Below are positions 1 to 11,693 of a stretch of 64,000 bases of DNA, one piece after another. Position 1 is the stretch's first letter. Every line of letters starts with the position of its first letter. The DNA is from Bacillota bacterium (GTDB lineage Bacteria > Pseudomonadota > Gammaproteobacteria > Natronospirales > REEB76), in assembly GCA_050261675.1 (NCBI GenBank), contig JBLNDO010000055.1, positions 2,701-66,700 on the forward strand, given 5' to 3'. The position numbers and the translations under genes are program-made. Under the pieces are notes generated by a model, which was not told the origin of the DNA, did no database searches, and saw only the letters and a list, made by a program, of their open reading frames with translations.

Positions 1-399
1 GACGCCGACCAGGACGTAGACCAGCATCGCCAGCGTCACCGCGGAACCGAGCACCACGAAGACCGCGAAGATCGCGGGCGGCGGCCCCGAGCCGACCGCC
101 TTGCGGCGCCGGTACGGATAGCTCGCCTGAAGCGCCAGCATCGGCACTCCGAACAGCACCCCCGCGATCCGCCACAGACCCGGCTGCGCAAGGTCGAAGA
201 GCGCCAGCAGCGCCGGTAAGATCGCCGCCGCGGTCAAGACGAAGATGTACGTCATGATGGTCCTAGCGATGTAGCGGTCGAGCAGCGACAGCTTCGCTCC
301 CGCGGCCTGCCGGACGACGTACAGAAGCGCCGAGAACCCCGCGAACGTGACCATCACGCCCGCCAAGGTGTACAGAAGGACTGCGCCTTTGATTTCCAT
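1..399 (-). CDS. Hypothetical multi-pass membrane protein (3' end outside the window)
   Basis: Manual translation from ATG at 399 gives MEIKGAVLLYTLAGVMVTFAGFSALLYVVRQAAG..., which is hydrophobic and open to the window edge; RBS GAGGGGA upstream. Not in the ORF track. Confidence 0.7.
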   Translation of the reverse strand, partial: MEIKGAVLLYTLAGVMVTFAGFSALLYVVRQAAGAKLSLLDRYIARTIMTYIFVLTAAAILPALLALFDLAQPGLWRIAGVLFGVPMLALQASYPYRRRKAVGSGPPPAIFAVFVVLGSAVTLAMLVYVLVGV

Positions 400-410
400 G
401 TTATCCCCTC

Positions 411-433
411 AAGAAATCGCGGTCTGTGCCCCT
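411..433 (+). repeat. Short dispersed GTCTGTCCCC-family repeat, copy R1
   Basis: aagaaatcgcggtctgtgcccct; the first 17 nt are identical to R2 at 1980. Confidence 0.8.
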
Positions 434-442
434 GCCATTTTC

Positions 443-1966
443 TCACCAATCCAAATCGCCCATGAGCCCGGCGTAGGTCTCGATGCCATCCCAAAGGTTC
501 TGTAGGCGCAGGTTCTCGTCGTGGGCGTGCTGATTGTCGTCGTGGTTGGCGATGGGCACGCCGATCACCGGAGTCTTGAAGACCTCCGCGAAGAGGTACA
601 TGGGCACGCTGCCGCCGAGCATGGGCTGGAGGATCACCGGCTGACCGGCAGCACGGCCGGCGGCGGCGATCACGGCCTTCGATGCCGGCAGGGACATGTC
701 GGTGCGCCAGGCCGGGTAACCGCTCTCCCACTGCATCCGCAGGAGGCGCGGCGCGGCCATGCGTTCCTCAGGCGTAGGCTCATGGTCGATCAGGGTGTAA
801 CCCTTCGACTTCAGATACGCCTCGACCTTGGCGCGGGCGTCTTCCGGGGTCTGGTCGGGCACGAGACGCAGGTCCAGGGAGACCTTCGCGTCCACCGGTA
901 TGGCATTGGCGGCCTCCGCCCCCACGTGGCCGGAGCTCAAGCCGCGCACGTTGATGGCCGGGCGCATGAGGCTGTCGCCGAGCCTTTCCGTGCCCTCGCT
1001 GCGGCCGATCTCCAGTTCCTTCTTGAGGCCCGTCTCCGCGTCCGGCGTCGCGGCGAGCGCCTCTTTCTCGGCGGTCGTCAGCGGGCGCACGTGATCAGAA
1101 TAGCCCGGGACCAGGATGCGGCCCTCGCTGTCGCGAAGGAACGCCACGATCTCGGCAGCCATCACCGCCGGGTTCGGCACCCAGTTGCCGTAGTGGCCGC
1201 TGTGCATGGCCTTGATGGGACCGTAGACCGTCATCTCGAGGGCAGTGTCGCCGCGCGCGCCGAAGAAGAGCTGCGGCCGGCGGCTCTGGTGCACCGGGCC
1301 GTCGCCGATGATCCAGAGGTCGGACTTGAGCAAGTCCTGGTTGGCGCGCAGGATCGCCTCGATATGCGGCGAGCCCTGCTCTTCCTCGCCGTCGAAGAAC
1401 AGTTTCACGTTCACCGTGGGCTTGCGACCGGAGGCTTTCAGCGCGTCGAGGGCCGAGAGGATTGCCTCCTCCGAATCCTTGTCGTCGCCCGCCCCGCGCG
1501 CATAGAGCCGCCATTCGGGGTCGAGGACGGTGGCCGCGCGCCAGTCCACATCCTTGCCGTCGGGCCCGTCGCGCATCACCGGCGTGAACGGCGGCGAGCG
1601 CCACTGGGAGGGCGTGACCGGCTGGCCGTCGTAATGGGAGTAGTAGACCACGGTGCGCTTGGCGCCGGGGACCTTGAGCTCCCCATAGACATCCGGCGGC
1701 GTGCCGGGGCCGGCCGAGAGGATCCTGGCCTTGAGGCCACGGGCCTCGATCATTTTCACCAGCAGCCTGGCGTTGGCCTCGATGTCGGGCACGTTGGTGG
1801 CCACGTCCGGCAGCGCCAGGAAATCCGTGAACTCGCCCAGGATCTGCCGCGCGTGGGCCTTGCGCCAGGCCTCGACCTGATCGTGGAGCGGCGCGGGTGT
1901 GGATGACGCAGCGGAGGCCGCCGCCACCACAAGCAAGAAAGCGAGCGCGAAAGAAGATCTCATCAT
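443..1966 (-). CDS. Secreted M20/M25/M40 family metallopeptidase
   Basis: Signal peptide; motifs HYDGQP, ARGAGDDK, GEEEQGS and NHDDNQHAHDEN. Confidence 0.9.
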   Translation of the reverse strand: MMRSSFALAFLLVVAAASAASSTPAPLHDQVEAWRKAHARQILGEFTDFLALPDVATNVPDIEANARLLVKMIEARGLKARILSAGPGTPPDVYGELKVPGAKRTVVYYSHYDGQPVTPSQWRSPPFTPVMRDGPDGKDVDWRAATVLDPEWRLYARGAGDDKDSEEAILSALDALKASGRKPTVNVKLFFDGEEEQGSPHIEAILRANQDLLKSDLWIIGDGPVHQSRRPQLFFGARGDTALEMTVYGPIKAMHSGHYGNWVPNPAVMAAEIVAFLRDSEGRILVPGYSDHVRPLTTAEKEALAATPDAETGLKKELEIGRSEGTERLGDSLMRPAINVRGLSSGHVGAEAANAIPVDAKVSLDLRLVPDQTPEDARAKVEAYLKSKGYTLIDHEPTPEERMAAPRLLRMQWESGYPAWRTDMSLPASKAVIAAAGRAAGQPVILQPMLGGSVPMYLFAEVFKTPVIGVPIANHDDNQHAHDENLRLQNLWDGIETYAGLMGDLDW

Positions 1967-1979
1967 CGAACCTCTTCCA

Positions 1980-2046
1980 AAGAAATCGCGGTCTGTCCCC
2001 TATGACGATGGGCCCACTGAACCGTGGTCAGGCCCGATTAATTCCC
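1980..2046 (+). repeat. GTCTGTCCCC-family repeats R2 (1980-2003) and degenerate R3 (2020-2046)
   Basis: aagaaatcgcggtctgtcccctat and aaccgtggtcaggcccgattaattccc. Confidence 0.75.
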
Positions 2047-2131
2047 ATCGATTCGGCCTGAACTTCATAGGTGAGACAAGGTCCGAAAGAATACCCTTTC
2101 GATCGTCACCCTGTCGCCGAGGATTAAGCCT

Positions 2132-2905
2132 ATGTCAAAGCTCGGATTTTCATTGGCTCTGGCTCTCAGTGTGATGGCCTCTGCCGCCTGGGCGGCGGAG
2201 GCGCCCTTCGTGGGCACATGGAAGCTGGACCCATCCAAAACAACGCTGGCCGACGTGATGAAAGTCGAGAGCGCCGGCGGCAACAAATATACCTTCGACG
2301 TCGGCGGAGGTCCGGAGACCGTGACGGCCGACGGCACCGATCAGCCGGGCTACGCCGGGACCACGGTGGCTGTCACCCTCACGGGCCCGGATTCCCTGAA
2401 ATTCGTCCGCAAGCAGGCGGGGCGCGTCCTGCTCACCGCGTACTGGAAGCTCTCCCAGGATGGCAGCACGCTCAACGATGACTTCACGTCTTTTGCGCCC
2501 GATGGGTCTCCCTCCAACGTGAAGATGGTGTTTGCGCGGACAGCGGGGACCTCGGGGTTAATGGGGACCTGGGAAAGCACCAGCGCGGCGGTGAACTTCC
2601 AGCTCACGATCACTATCCAGCCCTACGACGGGAGCGGCCTTTCCCTCATCCCCACCTCGGACAAGCCCAAGAACCTGACATTCGACGGCAAGGACTATCC
2701 GAACTTGAGTTCCAACGCGCCCGCCGGGTCCACGTATTCCGCCAGGCGGGTCAGCGCGCGCAGCTTCGAGATGACCGACAAGGTCGACGGCAAGGTCATG
2801 GACACTCGGGAGTACGTGCTCTCTCCCGATCATAAGACCCTGACGGTGACCATCCACAAGACCGGCGTGCGCAGCCCCAACATCCTGGTGTTCGAGCGGC
2901 TGTAG
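2132..2905 (+). CDS. Secreted protein with two tandem lipocalin-like beta domains
   Basis: Signal peptide; internal duplication FVGTWKL/LMGTWES, ADGTDQP/FDGKDYP, LSQDGSTL/LSPDHKTL. Confidence 0.75.
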   Translation: MSKLGFSLALALSVMASAAWAAEAPFVGTWKLDPSKTTLADVMKVESAGGNKYTFDVGGGPETVTADGTDQPGYAGTTVAVTLTGPDSLKFVRKQAGRVLLTAYWKLSQDGSTLNDDFTSFAPDGSPSNVKMVFARTAGTSGLMGTWESTSAAVNFQLTITIQPYDGSGLSLIPTSDKPKNLTFDGKDYPNLSSNAPAGSTYSARRVSARSFEMTDKVDGKVMDTREYVLSPDHKTLTVTIHKTGVRSPNILVFERL

Positions 2906-3038
2906 ATTTAAAGGGCTCTAATCCCTTTCCCATTTCTCTCCCGAATTAGGGCGGAAACCGTCCTATTAGCTGGTCATCCTGCGCGCCAGTACGGCACCCC
3001 CGCGTCCGTATCCCACTGGCACAGCACGGGAGAAGCCC

Positions 3039-3632
3039 ATGACCACACGCACATTGCTCAAGTTCAGCCTGGCCGCGGCCCTCCTGGGCCTGTCGGGCCT
3101 CAGTCTTGCCACCCAGGACAGCCTGCAGCCGCGACAGGGCAACGACCTCTCCGGCCTCCACGCCTTCGACCTGCGGGCCGGATGCTGGACCATCCACAAT
3201 CATGTGCTGAAGGAGCGGCTGGCCGGCAGCCACGACTGGTTCGATTACGAGGGCTTCCAGCGCCTGTGGATCACCATGGGCGGCTACGGCAACGTGGACG
3301 ACACCGAGCTGCGCAAGCCGGACGGGACCTACTACGGCGTGACGGTGCGTGCCTACGATCCCAAGACCGGCACCTGGTCCATCTGGTGGTACGACGGCCG
3401 CAATCCCTCCGGCGATCTGGCCCCGCCGGTAAAGGGGCGCTTCAAGGACGGCGTGGGCAGCTTCTATTCCGACGACAGCCTGCGCGGCAAACCCATCAAG
3501 GTGCGCTTCACCTGGTCAGGCATCACCGCCACCGCCGCCCACTGGGAACAGGCCTTCTCCGGCGACGGCGGCAAAACCTGGGAGACCAACTGGACCGCCG
3601 ACTTCAACAAGACAGATTGCACGGCCCACTGA
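3039..3632 (+). CDS. Secreted DUF1579-like protein
   Basis: Signal peptide; AFDLRAGCW...YDPKTGTWSIWW...WEQAFSGDGGKTWETNW. Confidence 0.75.
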   Translation: MTTRTLLKFSLAAALLGLSGLSLATQDSLQPRQGNDLSGLHAFDLRAGCWTIHNHVLKERLAGSHDWFDYEGFQRLWITMGGYGNVDDTELRKPDGTYYGVTVRAYDPKTGTWSIWWYDGRNPSGDLAPPVKGRFKDGVGSFYSDDSLRGKPIKVRFTWSGITATAAHWEQAFSGDGGKTWETNWTADFNKTDCTAH

Positions 3633-3666
3633 GCGCGCTGCCCGCGGCCGGTGAAGCCGCGGGCGC

Positions 3667-4200
3667 TCAGCCCTTTTTCTTCCCTCTTCTGGCGCGCGAA
3701 GGGGATCCCCGCAAACGATCCACGAAGGGCATGCGCCGGCAGGCCTGTTCCATCCGCCACAAGGCATCGAAGAGCCCGGGGGCCGCTTCGTCCATCAAGG
3801 CTTGCGAGGTCTCGGCCATGCGCGTCAGCGCCTTGCGCAGGCGCTGGGTCTCGGCGACGCCCTTGGCAGTGAGTTCGACGACCGTCCGGCGCCGATCGGT
3901 CTTGTCGGCGCGGGTCTCCACGAAACCGTGTTGCTGCAGCTGCTTGATCCAGTTGATGACCAGCGGGTGGGATTGACGCAGCAAGGCGGCGATCTCGGTG
4001 ACACCCAAGGGGCCATGTTCATCGAGAGCCAACAAGGTGGAGGTGGTGCGGGGCGGCGCGGTGACGCCCATCTCGGGATACCAGACATCGGCGCCGCGCA
4101 CGAGCTCATCGAAAAGCCGGCCCAGCAAGTGAGCGAGATACGCGGGTCCTTGGCTGCGGATGAAGTCTCTGTCCAGCTGCTCCTCGCGCTTCGCTTGCAT
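3667..4200 (-). CDS. MarR family transcriptional regulator
   Basis: Winged HTH with D-x-R-R motif (DKTDRRRTVVELTAKG). Confidence 0.9.
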   Translation of the reverse strand: MQAKREEQLDRDFIRSQGPAYLAHLLGRLFDELVRGADVWYPEMGVTAPPRTTSTLLALDEHGPLGVTEIAALLRQSHPLVINWIKQLQQHGFVETRADKTDRRRTVVELTAKGVAETQRLRKALTRMAETSQALMDEAAPGLFDALWRMEQACRRMPFVDRLRGSPSRARRGKKKG

Positions 4201-4263
4201 GCCTTGACCGCCCTGATGGAGTTATGTAAGAGTTTACCTATTTTCCACCTTGCGGGACAAGCC

Positions 4264-5598
4264 ATGCGTCTCCTCGCACTCTCCGCCGCCGTGGTCTTGG
4301 CCATGACGGCACCGGCCGCTCACGCCACGGCCGTACCGGACACCCACAGCGGCGATTGCGCCGTGGGCATCTACCAACTGACCGATGGCAGCAAGCTCGA
4401 CGTCGGCATGAGCGATGGCGGTCACCTGCGTTGGCGCCAGGAAGACGGCACCACCGGGCTGCTGAGCGAGGACGGGGAAGGCGCCTGGACCAGCGCCCTG
4501 GGATGGACCGGCCGCCCGGACGGCAAGCGCCTGAGCTTCGATTGCGCCCAGGAGCACGTGAGCTTCGCGGGCGTCTCGGGCAAGCGGATTCCGCTGCAGG
4601 TGACCGATGTGACCTTCCAGGGCGCCGGCGTGCCGCTCGCCGGGCGGCTGGTGATGCCGCCGGGCACCGCCCGGGTGCCCATCGTGGTGCTGATTCACGG
4701 TTCGGAGGATTTCTCGGCTCTGGACTTCTATTCCCTGCAACGGCAGTTCCCCGCCGAGGGTATCGGCGTGTTCGTGTACGACAAGCGCGGCACGGGGAAA
4801 TCCGGCGGCAGCTATACCCAGAACTTCCTGCTGCTGGCGGATGACGCCATCGCGGCGGTGGAGGAAGCCAAGCAGCTGGCCGGCGCACGGGCCGGCCGCA
4901 TCGGCTACCAGGGCGGCAGCGAGGGCGGCTGGGTTGCGCCGCTGGCGGCGAAGATGTCGCCCGTGGATTTCGTGATCGTGGGGTTCGGTCTCGCGGTATC
5001 GCCGCTGGACGAGGACCGGGAGGCCATCGAATACGACATGCGATCCGAAGGTTACGGTCCGGACGTGATGGCCAAGGCCATGCAGGTCGCAGATGCCTCG
5101 GCGGGTATCCTACTCAGCGACTTCCGCTCGGGCTACGACAAGCTCGACGCGCTCAAGACCCAATACGGCAAGGAGCCCTGGTTCAAGCGCGTACGCGGCG
5201 ACGTGACCTGGGCCTTGCTCGCCTGGCCGACGGAACAACTGAAACAGAAGGGACCGATACTCTTCGACGGCGTGCCGGCCCAGTACGATCCCATGCCGGT
5301 GTTGCGAAACCTGGATACGCCGCAACTCTGGATCCTCGGCGCCGAGGATGAGGACGCACCCAGTGAGGAGACCAGCAAACGCCTACAGAGCCTGCAGAAG
5401 ACCGGGCGCCCGATCACGCTCGCGGTGTTCCCGCACGCCGAGCACGGCATCTACGAATACGAGACCACGGCCACCGGCGAACGCCTGGACACGCGCAATC
5501 CGGAAGGTTATTTCGCCATGATGCGCGATTTCATCCTGGACGGACGGATCGGCAATCAGCCTTACGGCAACAGTGCGATCTACCGCTCGACGAAGTAG
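4264..5598 (+). CDS. Secreted alpha/beta hydrolase (S9/CocE-like)
   Basis: Signal peptide from ATG 4264; HGS, YDKRGTG, nucleophile GGSEGG, and catalytic D (GAEDED) and H (AEHG). Confidence 0.85.
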   Translation: MRLLALSAAVVLAMTAPAAHATAVPDTHSGDCAVGIYQLTDGSKLDVGMSDGGHLRWRQEDGTTGLLSEDGEGAWTSALGWTGRPDGKRLSFDCAQEHVSFAGVSGKRIPLQVTDVTFQGAGVPLAGRLVMPPGTARVPIVVLIHGSEDFSALDFYSLQRQFPAEGIGVFVYDKRGTGKSGGSYTQNFLLLADDAIAAVEEAKQLAGARAGRIGYQGGSEGGWVAPLAAKMSPVDFVIVGFGLAVSPLDEDREAIEYDMRSEGYGPDVMAKAMQVADASAGILLSDFRSGYDKLDALKTQYGKEPWFKRVRGDVTWALLAWPTEQLKQKGPILFDGVPAQYDPMPVLRNLDTPQLWILGAEDEDAPSEETSKRLQSLQKTGRPITLAVFPHAEHGIYEYETTATGERLDTRNPEGYFAMMRDFILDGRIGNQPYGNSAIYRSTK

Positions 5599-5835
5599 CC
5601 GCGGACGGAAACGTACAGAACAGCCACTTACCGCGCCTGGGTCGCGATGGCTGGTGGCGGAGAAGCGGGCTTCGGAATCGGGCAAGAGACCGGTTCGATA
5701 ACATATTAGATGAAGACCTAAGCCCCTCGATCTTCCGTCCGGCGTGGTTCATATTTCCTTGGCAGGCGAAGCGGCTCTCCCATTCCATGCGCAGAGCCGA
5801 TTCACGGAAAGGTATGCAAGGCAATCGGAGCCCCA

Positions 5836-6393
5836 ATGAGAAAACTGATCTACGCCATCAACGTGACCTTGGATGGCTGCTGCGACCACAGGAAGGTGAT
5901 CGCGGATGAAGAGCTGCACGATTATTACACGCAGCTCTTGCGGGAGATCGGGACCTTCGTCTATGGGCGCATCACCCATCAATTGATGGTCCCCTATTGG
6001 CCCGAGATGGCAAAGAACCAGTCCGGGTCAAGGGCGGAGAACGCGTTTGCCAAGGGCTTCGACGCGGTCGGCCAGACCGTCGTTTTCTCGCGCTCGCTGG
6101 CCAAGGCCGAGGGAAAGAACACGCGGATCGTCCGGTCGGGCCTTCGAGACGAGATCCTCAAACTGAAGCAGGAACCGGGGAAAGACATCCTGGTGGGCGG
6201 CGTGGACATCCCCTCGCAGCTCATGGCGCTGGACCTCATCGACGAATATCGCTTCGTGGTGCAGCCGATCATCGCGGGGGAAGGGAGACGCCTGTCGGCG
6301 GCCATCAAGCCACAGGAAGGACTGCGGTTGAAGCTCGCTGGGTCGAAGGCTTTCAAGTCCGGCTGCGTGGCGCTGCACTACACCAGACGGTGA
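5836..6393 (+). CDS. Dihydrofolate reductase-like (RibD C-terminal) protein
   Basis: MRKLIYAINVTLDG...GKDILVGG...LIDEYRFVVQPIIAGEG. Confidence 0.9.
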   Translation: MRKLIYAINVTLDGCCDHRKVIADEELHDYYTQLLREIGTFVYGRITHQLMVPYWPEMAKNQSGSRAENAFAKGFDAVGQTVVFSRSLAKAEGKNTRIVRSGLRDEILKLKQEPGKDILVGGVDIPSQLMALDLIDEYRFVVQPIIAGEGRRLSAAIKPQEGLRLKLAGSKAFKSGCVALHYTRR

Positions 6394-6421
6394 AAGGCTC
6401 TTGCTGCCCCGCGATCAAGAT

Positions 6422-6994
6422 TCAGTACACCCAGGGGATGAGGCGCTGGGTGCGGCGCTGGTAGTCCACGTAGCGGTCACCCAAACCCTTTACCAAGGCA
6501 ATCTCCTCCACGTGAATGCGGTAGCCGTAGGAAACGAGCGCCGCCGCGAGCACCACCAGGGCCGAGAGCCAGTTGCCCAGGGCGAAGCCGAAACCGAATA
6601 AAGCCACAATCGCGCCGAGATAGCTCGGGTGACGCACCCAGGAGTAGAGCCCTTTGTCCATGAGCGGATGGTCCGCCTCGATCGCCACCACCGGCATGTG
6701 CAGCCTTCCCAACTGCCGGATAGCGAGGAAGCGGATCCCGATCCCCAACGCCATGACCGCGAATCCGAAGAGCTGCAGCGGCACGGCCGCCGCGCCGAAG
6801 CTTCCGATGGGGCCGTAGGACCGGAAGATGGCCACGGCGATGCCGACCCACAGGACCAGCATCAGCCAGCCGAGGGAGCCGCGGTCGGCGCTCTTGGCGC
6901 GGCGGCTGTACCTGCTGAACACCCAAAGCAAGTCCAGCAGGAGCCAGGCCCAGAGCGAGAAACAGGCGACGTTACGCAAGTCCAGAGACATCAT
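6422..6994 (-). CDS. Isoprenylcysteine carboxyl methyltransferase family membrane protein
   Basis: GLYSWVRHPSY and RIHVEE motifs; start could extend to 7030. Confidence 0.85.
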   Translation of the reverse strand: MMSLDLRNVACFSLWAWLLLDLLWVFSRYSRRAKSADRGSLGWLMLVLWVGIAVAIFRSYGPIGSFGAAAVPLQLFGFAVMALGIGIRFLAIRQLGRLHMPVVAIEADHPLMDKGLYSWVRHPSYLGAIVALFGFGFALGNWLSALVVLAAALVSYGYRIHVEEIALVKGLGDRYVDYQRRTQRLIPWVY

Positions 6995-7207
6995 CGCAAC
7001 CCCCGCGAAGTGCAAAGAGTCTTCGCTCAATCCGCGGAGACCATTATCCGAGCGGCGGCGTGGCCCGGGTAGTGATAACTGTCATCGTTCTTGGCTGATG
7101 GCATGGGACCGGATGCTCTGCCGCCCATCGTCCATCCATATCCCTACGATCCAAACCCAGCTTGACCGCGTGAGCCCCGCGGCCGATGATTTCGCCAAGG
7201 AGCCGAA

Positions 7208-7846
7208 ATGACCATCACCATCACCGCGTTCGAACGCTCCCCCGACGGCGGCAAGGGACTGGCGCGGGACACGCGCGTGCGCTGGGCGCTGGAGGAAGTG
7301 CGGCAGCCCTACGAGGTGCGCTACGTCTCCTTCAAGGCCATGAAGGAAGCCGCGCACCTGGCGGTGCATCCCTTCGGCCAGATCCCCACCTACGAGGAAG
7401 ACGGCCTCGTCCTGTTCGAGTCCGGGGCGATCGTGCTCCACATCGCCGAGCAGCATGCGGGCCTGTTCCCCAAGGACGCCGATGCCCGGGCCCGGGCCAT
7501 CGCCTGGATGTTCGCGGCGCTCAGCACCGTCGAGCCGCCGATCCTCGAGCTCTCCATCGCCAAGTTCCAGGAGGGCGACAAGCCCTGGGGCCCGGAACGC
7601 ATACCGCTGGTCAAGGACCGGATCCGCGCGCGGCTGAACCCGCTCTCGGAACGCCTGGGCAAGGCCGAGTGGCTCGACGGCGCGTTCAGCGCCGGGGACC
7701 TGATGATGGTCTCGGTGCTGCTGAGGCTCCGGGCCTCGGGCCTCCTGGACGAGTTCCCGAACCTGGCGGCCTACGTGGCCCGCGGCGAGGCGCGGCCCGC
7801 CTATCAGCGGGCCTTCGCCGCACAACTGGCGGTCAACGCCCGCTGA
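7208..7846 (+). CDS. Glutathione S-transferase family protein
   Basis: HPFGQIP, LFESGAI and FSAGDL motifs; RBS AAGGAG. Confidence 0.92.
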   Translation: MTITITAFERSPDGGKGLARDTRVRWALEEVRQPYEVRYVSFKAMKEAAHLAVHPFGQIPTYEEDGLVLFESGAIVLHIAEQHAGLFPKDADARARAIAWMFAALSTVEPPILELSIAKFQEGDKPWGPERIPLVKDRIRARLNPLSERLGKAEWLDGAFSAGDLMMVSVLLRLRASGLLDEFPNLAAYVARGEARPAYQRAFAAQLAVNAR

Positions 7847-7896
7847 GCGGGGCTTCCGTATCCAGCGGCAAGGGATGGGTCGAAGCTCAAATCCAC
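7837..7896 (-). pseudogene. 5' remnant of the DpnI-like gene (codons 1-20)
   Basis: 48/60 nt ungapped identity (counted by hand) to 9856-9915; translates VDLSFDPSLAAGYGSPAQRA versus MDLSFDKSLAALYESPAQRA. Confidence 0.85.
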
Positions 7897-7913
7897 GTTT
7901 TCCCGTATTCATC

Positions 7914-7936
7914 AAACGTGGTCTGTCCCCTAATTA
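7914..7936 (+). repeat. GTCTGTCCCC-family repeat R4
   Basis: aaacgtggtctgtcccctaatta. Confidence 0.85.
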
Positions 7937-7984
7937 TAGGGGCTTGCGGCGCTCGATGATCCCCGGCACGAAGAAATGGCTGGG
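7937..7984 (-). pseudogene. Internal remnant of the DpnI-like gene
   Basis: 44/48 nt identical to 9526-9573; translates PSHFFVPGIIERRKPL versus PSHFFVPEIIERRKPL. Confidence 0.9.
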
Positions 7985-8018
7985 CGGAAGCCGGATCCAC
8001 GTTCTGTCAACCCGAAAT

Positions 8019-8042
8019 AACCACGGCCTTTCCCCGATTCCC
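8019..8042 (+). repeat. Degenerate GTCTGTCCCC-family repeat R5
   Basis: aaccacggcctttccccgattccc. Confidence 0.5.
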
Positions 8043-8123
8043 CACGCGATTGCGCGTATGCTGTGAGAAGTCCCGCCTCACCGCCCCGTCGATACGAACC
8101 CCTGCCCTTTCCCTGCCTTCGGC

Positions 8124-8471
8124 ATGGCGACTGCACCGGTAATCGACCACCACCGGAGCCCTCCCATGCCCATGGAAATATTTGAGTTCGTGAACGGTGC
8201 CCAGACCTACCGCATCCAGTTCGACATCGTGGCGCCGCCGCCGAGCGCCCACCCCAAGCCGGGCTTCACCCGCAACTTCGGGCTCAAGCCCCAGTTCACC
8301 GTGGCCAGCATCCGTATCGTCGAGATCACGCAGGGCGTCGGCGAGGACGGCCCCAAGAAGACGCTCAATTTCGCGCGCAGCTTCGACACCGTGGCCCAGG
8401 CCCGCACCGGCGCCGGCGAGTATGCCAAGCGCATCGTGCGCGAACAGATGGCGCCGAAACCGGCCGCTTAG
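8124..8471 (+). CDS. Hypothetical protein (start may be 8166 or 8172)
   Basis: ORF with host-like GC3 codon usage, followed by a terminator; no family recognised. Confidence 0.7.
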   Translation: MATAPVIDHHRSPPMPMEIFEFVNGAQTYRIQFDIVAPPPSAHPKPGFTRNFGLKPQFTVASIRIVEITQGVGEDGPKKTLNFARSFDTVAQARTGAGEYAKRIVREQMAPKPAA

Positions 8472-8497
8472 CCTTCAGCTTTCAGTTCTGGGGGAAT

Positions 8498-8530
8498 CCC
8501 CGTCAGCAGACGAGTGCTGGCGGGGTTTTT
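8498..8530 (+). terminator. Intrinsic terminator
   Basis: Stem ccccgtcagca/tgctggcgggg followed by ttttt; the right arm overlaps the DpnI remnant. Confidence 0.65.
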
Positions 8531-8567
8531 ATATCCAGCGGCGAGGGATGGGTCGAAGTCCAAATGC
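8516..8567 (-). pseudogene. Second 5' remnant of the DpnI-like gene
   Basis: Translates HLDFDPSLAAGYKNPA and then frameshifts; shares atccagcggcRagggatgggtcgaag with the 7837 remnant. Confidence 0.8.
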
Positions 8568-8587
8568 CCGTTGCTTCAGCCCCAAGT

Positions 8588-8612
8588 AAACGTGATCTGT
8601 CCCCTAATTCCC
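8588..8612 (+). repeat. GTCTGTCCCC-family repeat R6
   Basis: aaacgtgatctgtcccctaattccc. Confidence 0.8.
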
Positions 8613-8736
8613 TGCTTACGTGGGCCGAATGCTCGCAGAGCACCGATCAAATAAACAGCCCCTCCCCCATTTCACGTAATGGAGGGGGTGGATATATGAA
8701 TTTTTTGTGACAGACCCCCCTCTATACTTTCGCTCG

Positions 8737-8762
8737 AAACCGTGGGCTGTCCCTTATTATTA
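8737..8762 (+). repeat. GTCTGTCCCC-family repeat R7 (partial inverted copy at 8701-8718)
   Basis: aaaccgtgggctgtcccttattatta; abuts the stop codon of ORF 8760-8939. Confidence 0.7.
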
Positions 8763-8939
8763 TTCGCGCGTGTGAGGCCTCGTATCGCCTTTGTTCAGGC
8801 ACTTTGCAATTCGTGCTGCCCGCTCCTGGGCATCTTCGTGTTCGTCGTAGTCGCCACAGACGCAAATTTCTCGATTTGCGACATTGTCCACGACGACATA
8901 GGTTTCTAAATCAAACTGACTTACGGAATACCGGTTCAT
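8760..8939 (-). CDS. Small low-GC hypothetical protein (59 aa)
   Basis: MNRYSVSQFDLETYVVVDN...; RBS GAGGGGA; ATGA-coupled to the upstream ORF. Confidence 0.55.
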   Translation of the reverse strand: MNRYSVSQFDLETYVVVDNVANREICVCGDYDEHEDAQERAARIAKCLNKGDTRPHTRE

Positions 8940-9148
8940 ACAAGTCCCCTCTTGGTCCACACCTGAAATTCGGGATAAGACTGGCAATCTTGGAAATCCA
9001 TGTCTTTGTCGTCAGCCCAGACTAATTCTGTGAAATTCACATCGTCGTCGCTATATCCCCGGCACATGACCATGAATCCAGGAATGTATTGCTGAGCCCA
9101 CAAAGCGAAGCGAGCGAAAAATGGAGGTACTCGGATAGCCATAGTCAT
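8936..9148 (-). CDS. Small low-GC hypothetical protein (70 aa)
   Basis: Start overlaps the DpnI-like stop codon (ATGA coupling). Confidence 0.5.
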   Translation of the reverse strand: MTMAIRVPPFFARFALWAQQYIPGFMVMCRGYSDDDVNFTELVWADDKDMDFQDCQSYPEFQVWTKRGLV

Positions 9149-9915
9149 ATCACCCTATACCGGCCGCGGCCGATGAATTCCAAATAGCCCGCATCGCGCA
9201 ATACTTGGAGCTGTTGCCTGATCTTAGCTCGAACGTGGCGATTGTGGGCATGGAGTTTCGAAAGACGATCTTCGTAACGGTACGCGTCAGCCAGAGTGAA
9301 CTCAGATGACCCGAGTTGCTCTATGCACCGCATCACATCGAGGGTCCAACCACGAGTCTCGACTTTCTTCTGCTCCCGCAGGAACAAGGTGCGTTTCCAG
9401 GCGGCCAGCACCGAGGCCTTGGGGAGCGGCACGCCCTGCTCCACCAGGCTCACGCTCCCCGCCTGGGGGATCTCCCCCAAGAGGATGTTGCAACCCCGCC
9501 AGCCGGCACGCTTGGCCTTGGGGCCTAAGGGCTTCCGCCGCTCGATGATCTCCGGCACGAAGAAATGGCTGGGGATCACCACGAGATCCAGAACCTTAGC
9601 CTTCTGCAGGTCATAGGTCAGGCCAAAAAGATTCGGGACTTCGCTGCTCCTGAGGCGCCGGAGCATGGTGGCGTATTCCCCGTCTACGATCTTACGGCCG
9701 AAGGCATCCCGCTTGGCCTTGAGCTCGAACTGCTCCGAGCACTTTGGGCAGAAGAAATCCCCTACCGGGTTATTGTTGGGGTACTTCTCGATGGACGCCC
9801 GCCCGCAGTTGGGGCAGAAAACTTCCTGATGAACCCAGGACTCCGTCATCACCCGCGCCCGCTGCGCGGGGCTCTCATATAGAGCGGCGAGGGATTTATC
9901 GAAACTCAAATCCAT
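9145..9915 (-). CDS. DpnI / Dam-replacing family type IIM methyl-directed restriction endonuclease
   Basis: CPNCG and DFFCPKC zinc ligands, ELKAK catalytic motif, DGEYATM, RAGWRGCNI, and C-terminal winged helix KIRQQLQVLRDAGYLEFIGRGRY. Confidence 0.92.
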   Translation of the reverse strand: MDLSFDKSLAALYESPAQRARVMTESWVHQEVFCPNCGRASIEKYPNNNPVGDFFCPKCSEQFELKAKRDAFGRKIVDGEYATMLRRLRSSEVPNLFGLTYDLQKAKVLDLVVIPSHFFVPEIIERRKPLGPKAKRAGWRGCNILLGEIPQAGSVSLVEQGVPLPKASVLAAWKRTLFLREQKKVETRGWTLDVMRCIEQLGSSEFTLADAYRYEDRLSKLHAHNRHVRAKIRQQLQVLRDAGYLEFIGRGRYRVI

Positions 9916-9935
9916 GTTGCGCTATCCCCTATAAC

Positions 9936-10062
9936 GGCGCACAGCCAGCGGCGCCGAGACAAGGCAAAAAGCCTTAGCCAACCCGGAGCGTACTCTTGGT
10001 GTACGTGAGGACTGGCTAAGGCTTTTTAACGCAGTATTCGGCGGCGGCTGGCGAAGCGCCTA
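9936..10062. repeat. ~125-bp nested palindromic element
   Basis: 15-bp arms aaaaagccttagcca/tggctaaggcttttt around the core ggagcgtac-N7-gtacgtgagga; outer arms ggcgc..gccagc..cgccga / tcggcg..gctggc..gcgcc; ends in the nrdJb stop codon. Confidence 0.75.
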
Positions 10063-10821
10063 GCCGCACTTTGAGTCGCCGCAATTGAGACACGTCATAC
10101 ACCCATCCATCATCACCACCGCCGCGGTGCTGCACTTCTGGCAGAGCTGCGCCCCGGCCGGGAACTTGCTCTCGGCGAAGGCGTCGGTCTGCTTCGCCGC
10201 GGCCTCGAACTCGGCGCGCTTCTGGGCGATGAGCTTCTTCTGGTGCTCGTCCAGGCCTTCCTTGTGCATGAGGCCGATGGAAATCAGGTGCTTCTCGATG
10301 ACGTCGCCGATCTCGGCGATCAGCGAGGGCATGAACTTGCCGCCCGGCTTCCAGTAGCCGCCGCGGGGGTCGAACACGGCCTTGAGCTCCTCCACCAGGA
10401 AGGCCACGTCGCCGCCCTTCCTGAACACGGCGCTGATGATGCGCGTCAGGGCCACGATCCACTGGAAGTGGTCCAGGTTCTTGGAGTTGATGAAGATCTC
10501 GAAGGGCCGGCGCTGCTCGTAGGGGGTGCCTTCGTTCAGCACGATGTCGTTGATGGTGATGTACATGGCGTGGTCGGAGACCGGCGTCTTCACCTTGTAG
10601 GTGGAGCCGATGAGCATGTCGGGCCGCTCCAGGGCCTCGTGCATGCGGATGACCTCGGCCTTGTGCTTCTTCTCGGCCCGCTCGGTGACGATCTTCTCCA
10701 CCGGCTTCGAGCTCAGGGCCAGGGCCGCGGCCTGGGTCTCGGCCTGCACGTCCGCCTTGGGCGCGTCCTCGGCTTTCTGGACCGCATACTTGGTTATCTT
10801 CTTCTCGATTTTGATGCTCAT
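10060..10821 (-). CDS. nrdJb: Class II ribonucleotide reductase small part NrdJb (TSCPD domain)
   Basis: RPDMLIGSTYKVKTP, RPFEIFINSK, and C-terminal CQKC...DGCMTCLNCGDSKCG. Confidence 0.93.
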   Translation of the reverse strand: MSIKIEKKITKYAVQKAEDAPKADVQAETQAAALALSSKPVEKIVTERAEKKHKAEVIRMHEALERPDMLIGSTYKVKTPVSDHAMYITINDIVLNEGTPYEQRRPFEIFINSKNLDHFQWIVALTRIISAVFRKGGDVAFLVEELKAVFDPRGGYWKPGGKFMPSLIAEIGDVIEKHLISIGLMHKEGLDEHQKKLIAQKRAEFEAAAKQTDAFAESKFPAGAQLCQKCSTAAVVMMDGCMTCLNCGDSKCG

Positions 10822-10831
10822 AAACTCGCCT

Positions 10832-11693
10832 CTACTTGTTCACGGACCGAGGAATCATCGGCCCAAACGGCCCTATGGCAATTTTAACGTGCCCGCCTGC
10901 GGCCTTGTGGAACGCGTCGTGGCAGCTCTTGCACAGGGTCACTAAATTGCTTACCTCATACTTCAACACAGGAAACCGCTGGAACGGCCACACATGGTGG
11001 GCTCAGCTTCCCGCCCCGGCGACCGCACATCCTGCACGTGTAGTCGTCGCGCCTGAAACAGGCTTCCCGGGCCTCTCGCATGTACATCGACATGCGCTGC
11101 CGGCGCTGCTCGCCGGTGATGCCGCCTTTCCAGTTGTAGCGCTTGGAACCGAGGTTGGCGAGCCTCAGCTTCTCACGCACCCGCGCCGTCGGGCTCTTGC
11201 GCCGGTCGATTCCGGCCTTCTCGAGCCAGGCGCCCACGGTAGCGGCGCTCACACCCAGTTTCTTGCCTATCTCCGGGGTGGAAAGCTGGGACCGCGCGTA
11301 CCACTGGGCGGCACGCGCGGCCAGCTGACCCTCCCGGTCCAGCGACAACCTGTCGCCGATCTTTCGGCGCAACGCATCGGTCACATAGACACGGCGCGAA
11401 TTGCGCTTTAGATTCATCTCCCGGCGCCAATCGAACAACGTCGGTACCGGAATCTTCAGGCGGCGGGCGATGTCCGGTATCGGCACGCCGCTTTCATACA
11501 ACCTCTTCACCTCTTCGCCAAAAACCGTTTTGCGCGGGTCGGGGTTGTTCTTGCCCTTCGGCAGCACACCCCGGCAGTACGTACTTGCCGTGGCCACGGA
11601 GACGCCGGTCAACCGGGCGATCTCCTTGAGGCTTAAGCCTTGCCGGCGCAGCTTCCGCGCCTCGGCGACCTTGCCTTCCCGCCGATCAGCCAA
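10832..11693 (-). pseudogene. Free-standing HNH (homing-type) endonuclease with HTH/NUMOD modules, frameshifted just before the HNH motif
   Basis: The ORF has HTH repeats, NWKGG and RDDYTCRMCG. After a frameshift at ~11004 (ctg a gcc cac cat) it continues AHHVWPFQRFPVLKYEVSNLVTLCKSCHDAFH to TAG at 10834-10832. Confidence 0.85.

Follow-up and report, generated by a model that had tools for sequence, protein, structure and literature searches.

The stretch analysed here (the window) comprises 64 kb, positions 2701-66700 of contig C55 of assembly G000 (2.59 Mb, 65% GC, 103 contigs), and carries near its left end several copies of a short repeat, which are the subject of this report. From left to right, the genes assigned with Pfam encode a membrane protein (-), an M20 peptidase (-), two exported proteins of unknown function (+) and a MarR protein (-), then an alpha/beta hydrolase (+), a RibD_C protein (+), an ICMT (-), a GST (+) and an unknown 115-aa open reading frame (ORF; +). 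The map continues with two small low-GC ORFs (-), a DpnI-family endonuclease (-), a TSCPD protein (-), an ORF rich in helix-turn-helix (HTH) units (-) and a class II-type ribonucleotide reductase (RNR; -). The repeats are intergenic and placed at gene boundaries. The genes between them are functionally unrelated and lie on both strands, with seven genes between copies B and C (Table 1). On these points an earlier account of the window, made from its letters and called here the sequence-only reading, was borne out.

Repeat copies in the window, the genome and the family

A sequence-only covariance model was built from 35 copies and was searched unfiltered across the full 64 kb on both strands. 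The consensus of the 35-copy alignment, read on the minus strand, was GAATAATn-GGGGACAGACCACGrTTTCT. Five significant copies (A to E) were found, all on the minus strand and all inside the first 8.8 kb; no significant copy was present in the other 55 kb, and every further match in the window had E >= 2.7. The sequence-only reading had described at least seven copies, restricted to one strand and to this part of the window. Strand and restriction were confirmed and five of its copies were recovered, while those at 2020, 8019 and 9918 were not significant alone.

The context of these three suggests that they are decayed copies. The copy at 2020 (b in Table 1) reads by eye as GAATTAATCGGG..GACCACGGTT with one deletion and a few substitutions relative to the consensus. 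Those at 8019 and 9918, like those at 7914 and 8588, each precede the start of a DpnI-family gene or remnant, and the remnant at 9918 (F) is supported by position homology: in genome G050 a 30.6-bit copy precedes the start of the DpnI homologue by about 20 nt.

The model scores are partly circular because the window copies were included in the training set. Independent controls were therefore used, namely a plain 14-mer pattern against its reversed form and a weight matrix against reversed and Markov genomes. The pattern GGGGACAGAYCRCG occurred four times in the genome, compared with 0 for the reversed control. The weight matrix gave 11 genome matches at >=17 bits and none in either the reversed genome or the three Markov genomes. 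The string GGGGACAG is present in four of the five significant window copies; the variants are GGGGCACAG (copy A) and AGGGACAG (copy E), respectively. Single copies do not fold (z of -2.3, +0.8 and -0.9 for three DNA folds, the first value being due to a palindrome in the flank of copy C). Against Rfam, positions 1-12 kb had no family match at E up to 1.

Table 1. Positions of repeat copies, gene fragments and related features. Positions are those of the window unless a contig is named. RBS, ribosome-binding site.
Feature	Position	Strand	Details
Repeat copy A	409-431	-	17.1 bits, E 3e-4 (covariance model); sequence GGGGCACAGACCGCGATTTCTT; between M20 stop (443) and membrane-protein ATG (399), in the order M20 stop, copy, RBS, ATG
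Variable gene block between copies	443-7846	both	M20 peptidase through GST (Pfam)
Repeat copy B	1978-2004	-	25.6 bits, E 5e-7; followed by RBS and M20 peptidase ATG (1966)
Putative degenerate copy b	2017-2045	-	Tandem with B, ~36 nt upstream on the minus strand; E 2.7, not significant
GST gene	7208-7846	+	GST homology in relatives extends to 7849
DpnI-family 5' fragment 1	7837-7899	-	81% identical to 9856-9918; abuts 3' end of GST and overlaps last GST codons
Repeat copy C	7913-7934	-	21.8 bits; followed on the minus strand by DpnI-family 5' remnant
Internal DpnI-family fragment	7937-7984	-	92% identical to 9526-9573; ends directly at outer edge of copy C
Putative degenerate copy c	8012-8040	-	9.7 bits (weight matrix), not significant with the model; followed by DpnI-like start
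DpnI-family 5' fragment 2	8510-8572	-	70% identical to reference copy
Repeat copy D	8582-8610	-	23.8 bits; followed by DpnI 5' fragment 2
Repeat copy E	8735-8763	-	24.2 bits; after stop (8760) of small ORF 8760-8987
Copy E with conserved ~90-nt downstream stretch	8640-8766	-	Partial inverted core (GGTCTGTC) and hairpin
Intact DpnI-family (Dam-replacing) restriction endonuclease gene	9145-9915	-	Pfam DpnI 7.8e-70, DpnI_C 7.4e-30
Putative degenerate remnant F	9918-9935	-	TATAGGGGATAGCGCAAC; directly upstream of DpnI ATG; missed by the model
Counterparts of copy E unit	G010:C37:3356-3463; G002:C12:5363-5469; G010:C32:6764-6833		
G000 cluster on C55	the window		5-8 copies
G000 cluster on C41			4 copies within 3.6 kb
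G000 cluster on C44			2 copies within 1.1 kb
G000 single copy on C26			

A scan of the whole genome for clustering and polarity, which the sequence-only reading had proposed, gave about 12 copies (11-14), 11 of them in three clusters on contigs C55, C41 and C44. The C41 and C44 clusters are each co-oriented, as is that of the window.

For comparison, genomes of the genus of the window (15, of which 14 are relatives), of the family (41) and of the order (66) were used. The exact pattern was present in 1-3 copies in 12 of 41 relatives. With the model, copies were found in 33 of the 41 family genomes (1-11 each, E up to 0.1), or in 27 of 35 in the reduced family counts, which leave out the unpublished genomes G020 and G052-G056. 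62 of 117 family copies have a neighbour within 10 kb. Neighbouring pairs 150 nt-10 kb apart share their orientation in 30 of 33 cases (29/32 without the unpublished genomes and 22/25 when G000 is left out too). Of the three opposite pairs, one is the element described in the next section. Four family pairs are inverted doublets, two of them from unpublished genomes.

The copies tend to follow stop codons. With a crude calling of ORFs, a co-oriented ORF end was found <=30 nt upstream of 25 of 65 copies, compared with 7 of 65 in a mirrored control; a start <=60 nt downstream was not enriched (13/65 versus 10/65). Copies are found downstream of the RNR-TSCPD genes in two genera (the window, G011:C3, G023:C13 and G050:C34). 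The array of G023 consists of 10 co-oriented copies over 16 kb, mostly with one ORF per interval and with a co-oriented ORF in 8 of 10 intervals; ORF stops touch the repeat, and the gaps to the next start are 100-280 nt. The order stop, repeat, RBS, ATG was also observed in G010:C37, there between small low-GC ORFs, and in G000:C41.

Cognate transposase and identity of the motif

In contig C4 of G023, a 237-aa ORF is bracketed by two inverted copies of the motif separated by 788 nt, one 57 nt ahead of the ATG on the upstream side and the other, downstream, overlapping the stop codon. The ORF matches Pfam Y1_Tnp (4e-16), and its top NCBIfam match is 'REP-associated tyrosine transposase' (RAYT) with 77.6 bits, just below the cut-off of 80; REP denotes a repetitive extragenic palindrome. 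Its translation contains HVHLL and YIELNPVRA, which we take to be the HUH and tyrosine motifs of RAYTs.

Public sequences were scanned with the query ATNGGGGACAGACCACGNTTT, using one genome per species. At least 120 stretches were obtained, and the counts of public loci in this report are among the matches listed. By their titles, the stretches are mostly from metagenome-assembled genomes (MAGs) of Beta- and Gammaproteobacteria, some being from Desulfobacterota. In 14 public loci the copies form convergent pairs spaced 600-1400 nt apart, and 11 of these loci enclose a homologue 60-70% identical to the G023 enzyme. Such a homologue lies <=150 nt from a copy in 19 of the 120 loci. In six paralogous loci of the same order, with enzymes ~50% identical, the flanking inverted repeats open with GGGGTCAG and then differ in their tails. 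Since the close enzymes carry the exact motif and the ~50% paralogues carry other tails, repeat and enzyme co-vary. Of the other Y1 loci of the family, 21 of 22 have no flanking pair of the motif; three of them have a single weak match (11.8-17.8 bits).

RAYT-like genes flanked by terminal inverted repeats (TIRs) with the consensus GGGGWSAS, which occur singly, in dimers or in groups, are described in the text of PMC3733652 (Di Nocera et al. 2013) as TIRYT genes. The present motif is the TIR of such an element (a TIRtron) of the published GGGGWSAS class, and the G023 and public enzymes are its cognate transposases. The sequence-only reading had linked GGGG(A/T)CAG repeats to Y1 HUH or RAYT-like transposases, and this link is supported: the motif flanks such a gene, inverted, in G023 and in 11 public loci. 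The enzymes probably belong to subclass 2.1 of TnpA-REP (Quentin et al. 2018, PMC6006769). The G023 enzyme differs from that subclass, as its published text presents it, in that a Pfam scan found Y1_Tnp only and gave no match to the described C-terminal HTH.

Many public loci among the matches listed contain inverted doublets 30-60 nt apart, one of which folds with -28 kcal/mol (z -8.3), and tandem direct pairs 31-47 nt apart are also present. Inverted doublets are the common form in other taxa: among the matches listed, 45 of 87 long public loci are of mixed orientation. A tandem run of eight co-oriented copies in ~350 nt, with a period of 32-70 nt, was noted in a public record from a gammaproteobacterial MAG (L142).

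No match to PF01797 and no homologue of the G023 enzyme was found in the G000 assembly, which is 96% complete. In the absence of a Y1 transposase gene the G000 copies are therefore orphans. Two of the 14 genus relatives have Y1 genes, distant ones only (36% identity). No recombinase is encoded in the window, as the sequence-only reading had stated, and the 2.7 kb to its left, where that reading had suggested looking for a Y1 or tyrosine recombinase gene, encodes none. No integron integrase and no attC-like structure was found in G000. G021 has, beside its DpnI module in the variable region, two equal-scoring copies of another Y1 transposase gene with 33% identity to the TIRYT (L203; G021:C18:3036-3485 and 6611-7060).

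In G007 the orthologous membrane-protein gene is preceded, at 16 nt, by a counterpart of copy A, and decayed traces of this copy were seen by eye in four more species. As the site is kept in other species, at least some copies are old and vertically inherited.

Reiteration and gene order at the locus

The repeats of the window are reiterated together with pieces of a flanking gene. After each of copies C and D come the first 60-75 nt of the DpnI gene; behind the weak copies c and F it is a DpnI-like start or the gene itself that follows, so that the repeat with the DpnI 5' end is present three to four times in the window. Three of the copies in the sequence-only reading are therefore parts of a larger reiterated unit, the repeat plus the DpnI 5' end. 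The junction of DpnI fragment 1 with GST is a microhomology of ~10 nt, over which both homologies overlap, and lies away from any repeat. Comparable reiteration was found in other genomes. G023 has four copies of a thioredoxin gene, all preceded by a repeat, of which three are truncated or broken, and G010 has copies and a fragment of a GFA gene beside repeats. Truncated genes end at the outer edge of repeats.

The intact DpnI gene and the small ORFs 8936-9148 and 8760-8987 (-) form a three-gene module. This module is the first unit after TSCPD in G000, G050 and G021 and is therefore syntenic, with no sign of movement; it was accordingly rejected as a candidate moving cassette. The trio, a methyl-directed endonuclease of the DpnI family and, behind it, small conserved ORFs of 70 aa and 75 aa, is kept in G050 and G021. 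The two small proteins had no Pfam or NCBIfam match and are uncharacterised partners.

The genes of window positions 1-8.5 kb recur in genus relatives in changed order, and 26 of 26 matched segments (six contigs) keep their relative orientation. In four of nine relatives' loci with shuffled genes (L023, L025, L026 and L028) no repeat was found at a matrix score >=10. The closest metagenome contig with the TSCPD gene (~91% DNA identity) has no repeat, and no public sequencing run was listed for window positions 300-10200. One low-GC, TIR-flanked array ORFan of G010 is unique among the 66 order genomes. Besides the transposase, no cargo family recurs beside repeats in the 120 public loci listed; the largest group comprises four loci, of generic families.

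The sequence-only reading had proposed to look in relatives for gene gain or loss with breakpoints at the repeat. Gene order is not kept; four of the nine loci have no repeat and one junction lies away from repeats. That reading had also named two outcomes that would speak against it, repeats scattered through the genome without orientation bias and a gene order kept in relatives. The repeats are clustered and co-oriented and the relatives do not keep the order, so neither outcome was obtained.

Several further features of the region were recorded. The unit of copy E (CCCCTCCC..TTGTCACAAAAGATTCATA, then a hairpin) recurs beside different genes in other species, the stretch 8644-8752 being 77-79% identical there; it may be an old decayed doublet kept for some function. 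Between TSCPD and the DpnI gene lies a 75-nt hairpin element (9960-10034) with a 15-bp AT/GC stem and a 32-nt core (9983-10014). This element represents a second repeat family, unrelated to the TIR motif. Its core occurs in many copies of 94-100% identity in every genus relative and in four copies with <=3 mismatches in G000, one of which (C41:23518-23590) adjoins the second repeat cluster.

The 245-aa ORF 10956-11693 (-), between the reductase and TSCPD genes, contains three HTH units with IS630/IS21-like N-terminal matches. It has a low coding score, is single-copy, has no DNA match in relatives and is absent from L204, the closest metagenome contig. A homing or transposase gene may have left it as a remnant; a relationship to the TIRYT C-terminus, or a role as array recombinase, was rejected as no similarity was found. 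The RNR gene is matched in relatives in two parts ~1.1 kb apart (L034 4863-8132 in G023:C13, L201 10106-13381 in G050:C34 and G007:C12:552494-555910). The G023 reductase reads as a single 1089-aa ORF, which points to an intein; that of the window (724 aa) has no insert.

Interpretation and relation to known systems

The repeats of the window are likely to be solo and decayed copies of the ~30-nt TIR of a TIRtron, persisting as orphan relics. Their spread would be due to a TIRYT that worked in trans on single-stranded DNA, in the way demonstrated for related Y1 enzymes, and the copies would have landed in intergenic DNA of a fast-turnover region with few constrained genes, downstream of the RNR-TSCPD genes. 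Later local duplication, deletion and illegitimate recombination may then have copied repeats plus neighbouring DNA. The present G000 copies would be relics left by vertical inheritance and decay; a second species has copy A at the corresponding site. The shared orientation could stem from insertion that is strand-specific at the replication fork, by analogy with IS608-type Y1 enzymes as treated in the text of PMC6006769.

Several observations weigh against this interpretation. Among the 66 order genomes a single one yielded the cognate enzyme, the 15 of the window's genus yielded none, and ~12 copies per genome are far under classical REP numbers. The strict local co-orientation, the kilobase spacing and, in G023, the single gene per interval are unlike the inverted doublets that would be predicted. 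An origin of the orientation in the replication strand gained no support from GC skew, the sign of which was inconsistent among contigs and loci, with 12 positive and five negative family loci (which are non-independent) and 19 versus 23 public loci. No biochemical test of any TIRYT was found in the literature, as far as the text of the key papers goes.

Alternatively, the TIRs could be the boundaries of a chromosomal cassette array downstream of RNR-TSCPD, in which a TIRYT, acting in trans or intermittently, moves or duplicates genes. The enzyme would cut and rejoin direct TIRs on one strand, as a Y1 transposase does with IS608 ends; a gene together with one TIR would be released as a single-stranded circle and inserted at another TIR, giving an integron-like array at a fixed locus. 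We consider this unlikely. Arrays do occur at this place in two genera, and the G023 array, with its 10 co-oriented copies, stops touching the repeat and mostly one ORF per interval (co-oriented in 8 of 10), has the expected form, but in the window the genes are on both strands with seven of them between B and C. The order of genes is shuffled in relatives with all 26 segments keeping relative orientation, yet four of the nine shuffled loci have no repeat. Truncated genes that stop at the repeat edge, the stop-repeat-RBS-ATG pattern in G010:C37 and G000:C41 and the low-GC ORFans, one of them unique in the order, also favour cassettes. Against these stand the microhomology junction away from repeats, the syntenic DpnI module, the lack of a recurrent cargo family across the 120 public loci listed, and the enzyme itself: G000 has no Y1 gene and the genus no cognate one. 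The integron-like recombination sites proposed in the sequence-only reading were not upheld, given these loci and module and the lack of integrase, attC or Y1 gene. No description of RAYT- or TIRYT-bounded cassette arrays was found in the literature, figures and supplements of the key papers aside.

A regulatory element, that is a portable promoter or the operator of a local regulator that drives downstream accessory genes, is improbable. The idea draws on several copies that lie 13-25 nt upstream of an RBS and ATG (A, B, G010, L010 and L018), on the outer AATAAT, which resembles a -10 box, and on the TIRtron copy 57 nt before the transposase ATG. There is, however, no conserved -35 (information upstream of the motif is 0-0.5 bits), and a sigma-70 scan gave no minus-strand promoter at any of the five copies; by eye, sigma-54, sigma-32 and sigma-70 promoters did not fit. 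Starts are not enriched downstream, the G023 gaps are long, and inverted doublets and eight tandem copies in 350 nt misfit a promoter. That the motif is an Xer/dif-like core site at which a tyrosine recombinase acts, its 11-nt arms set apart by a 5-nt spacer, is very improbable indeed. A weak dyad matching at 7 of 11 positions can be seen by eye (AATAATCGGGG / ACAGA / CCACGGTTTCT), which does not exceed expectation for a short AT/GC pattern. Although XerC- and XerD-like proteins occur in this genome, none of its four PF00589 genes (XerD-like, XerC-like and two phage-type at contig ends) is near a cluster, the nearest being 27 kb away, and the motif is already accounted for by its link to Y1 transposase genes.

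With the TIRtrons, as described in the text of PMC3733652, the present repeats share a motif that starts with GGGGACAG and fits GGGGWSAS, and moderate abundance as single, dimeric and grouped copies, the single ones non-palindromic. Inverted copies at a fixed distance around a RAYT-like Y1 HUH gene are likewise shared, in G023:C4 and public loci and not in G000, which has orphan copies only and no enzyme gene. The family copies also differ in being nearly all direct, kilobase-spaced and interleaved with genes at one conserved locus. This layout was not found described in the literature, although the exact repeat may stand in figures or supplements of PMC3733652 or PMC6006769.

The REP/REPIN-RAYT systems (Nunvar 2010, PMC2817692; Bertels and Rainey 2011, PMC3116915) likewise combine short extragenic repeats with a cognate single-copy Y1 transposase that has inverted copies on either side. 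They also share inverted doublets forming long hairpins, sites just after genes and clusters reiterated with flanking DNA. The single unit differs in having no stem-loop and, compared with classical REPs, no GTAG or CGTC tag in the 35-copy alignment. Classical REPs number >100 per genome according to PMC2817692, whereas G000 has ~12 copies (11-14) and family genomes 1-11, at a few loci only and not in hundreds.

The resemblance to integron arrays lies in oriented repeats at gene boundaries, a fixed chromosomal place, unrelated and often foreign genes and a content that varies between relatives. attC sites are imperfect palindromes of 57-141 nt with RYYYAAC and GTTRRRY cores. The present repeat is ~30 nt long and unstructured, its consensus has no GTTRRRY core, and the clusters have no IntI beside them; attI and attC-type imperfect palindromes are likewise missing. 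An entire intergenic space can span ~40 nt, the repeat is absent from many gene boundaries and genes are on both strands; only G023 comes close to the integron layout (8 of 10 intervals co-oriented). IS200/IS605 elements (IS608, ISDra2) have a related Y1 HUH enzyme that acts on single strands, and recognition of both ends on the same strand provides a model for the processing of direct TIRs. TIRtrons differ in having no subterminal hairpins, no tnpB and inverted, not direct, ends; they are not known to transpose, and the NCBIfam IS200 score was 29 bits against a cut-off of 55.

Orphan, clustered repeats of the TIRYT type belong to a known kind; their organization here, co-oriented and gene-interleaved at a conserved variable locus, is unusual. 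RAYT and TIRYT enzymes are widespread, and their biological role and the spread of their repeats are unsettled. The locus adds an exact match of a repeat with its cognate enzyme in a lineage that spans Beta- and Gammaproteobacteria and is a clear case of orphan repeats that persist for long without an enzyme. For annotation it is a caution that such arrays can resemble integrons without being integrons. The cassette reading, if true, would mean that a 'domesticated' REP-type enzyme underlies an integron-like, single-strand capture system. Across the family, co-oriented repeats alternate with genes at one variable locus and are reiterated along with parts of adjacent genes, a pattern that offers a concrete place to ask whether Y1 enzymes reshuffle host genes.

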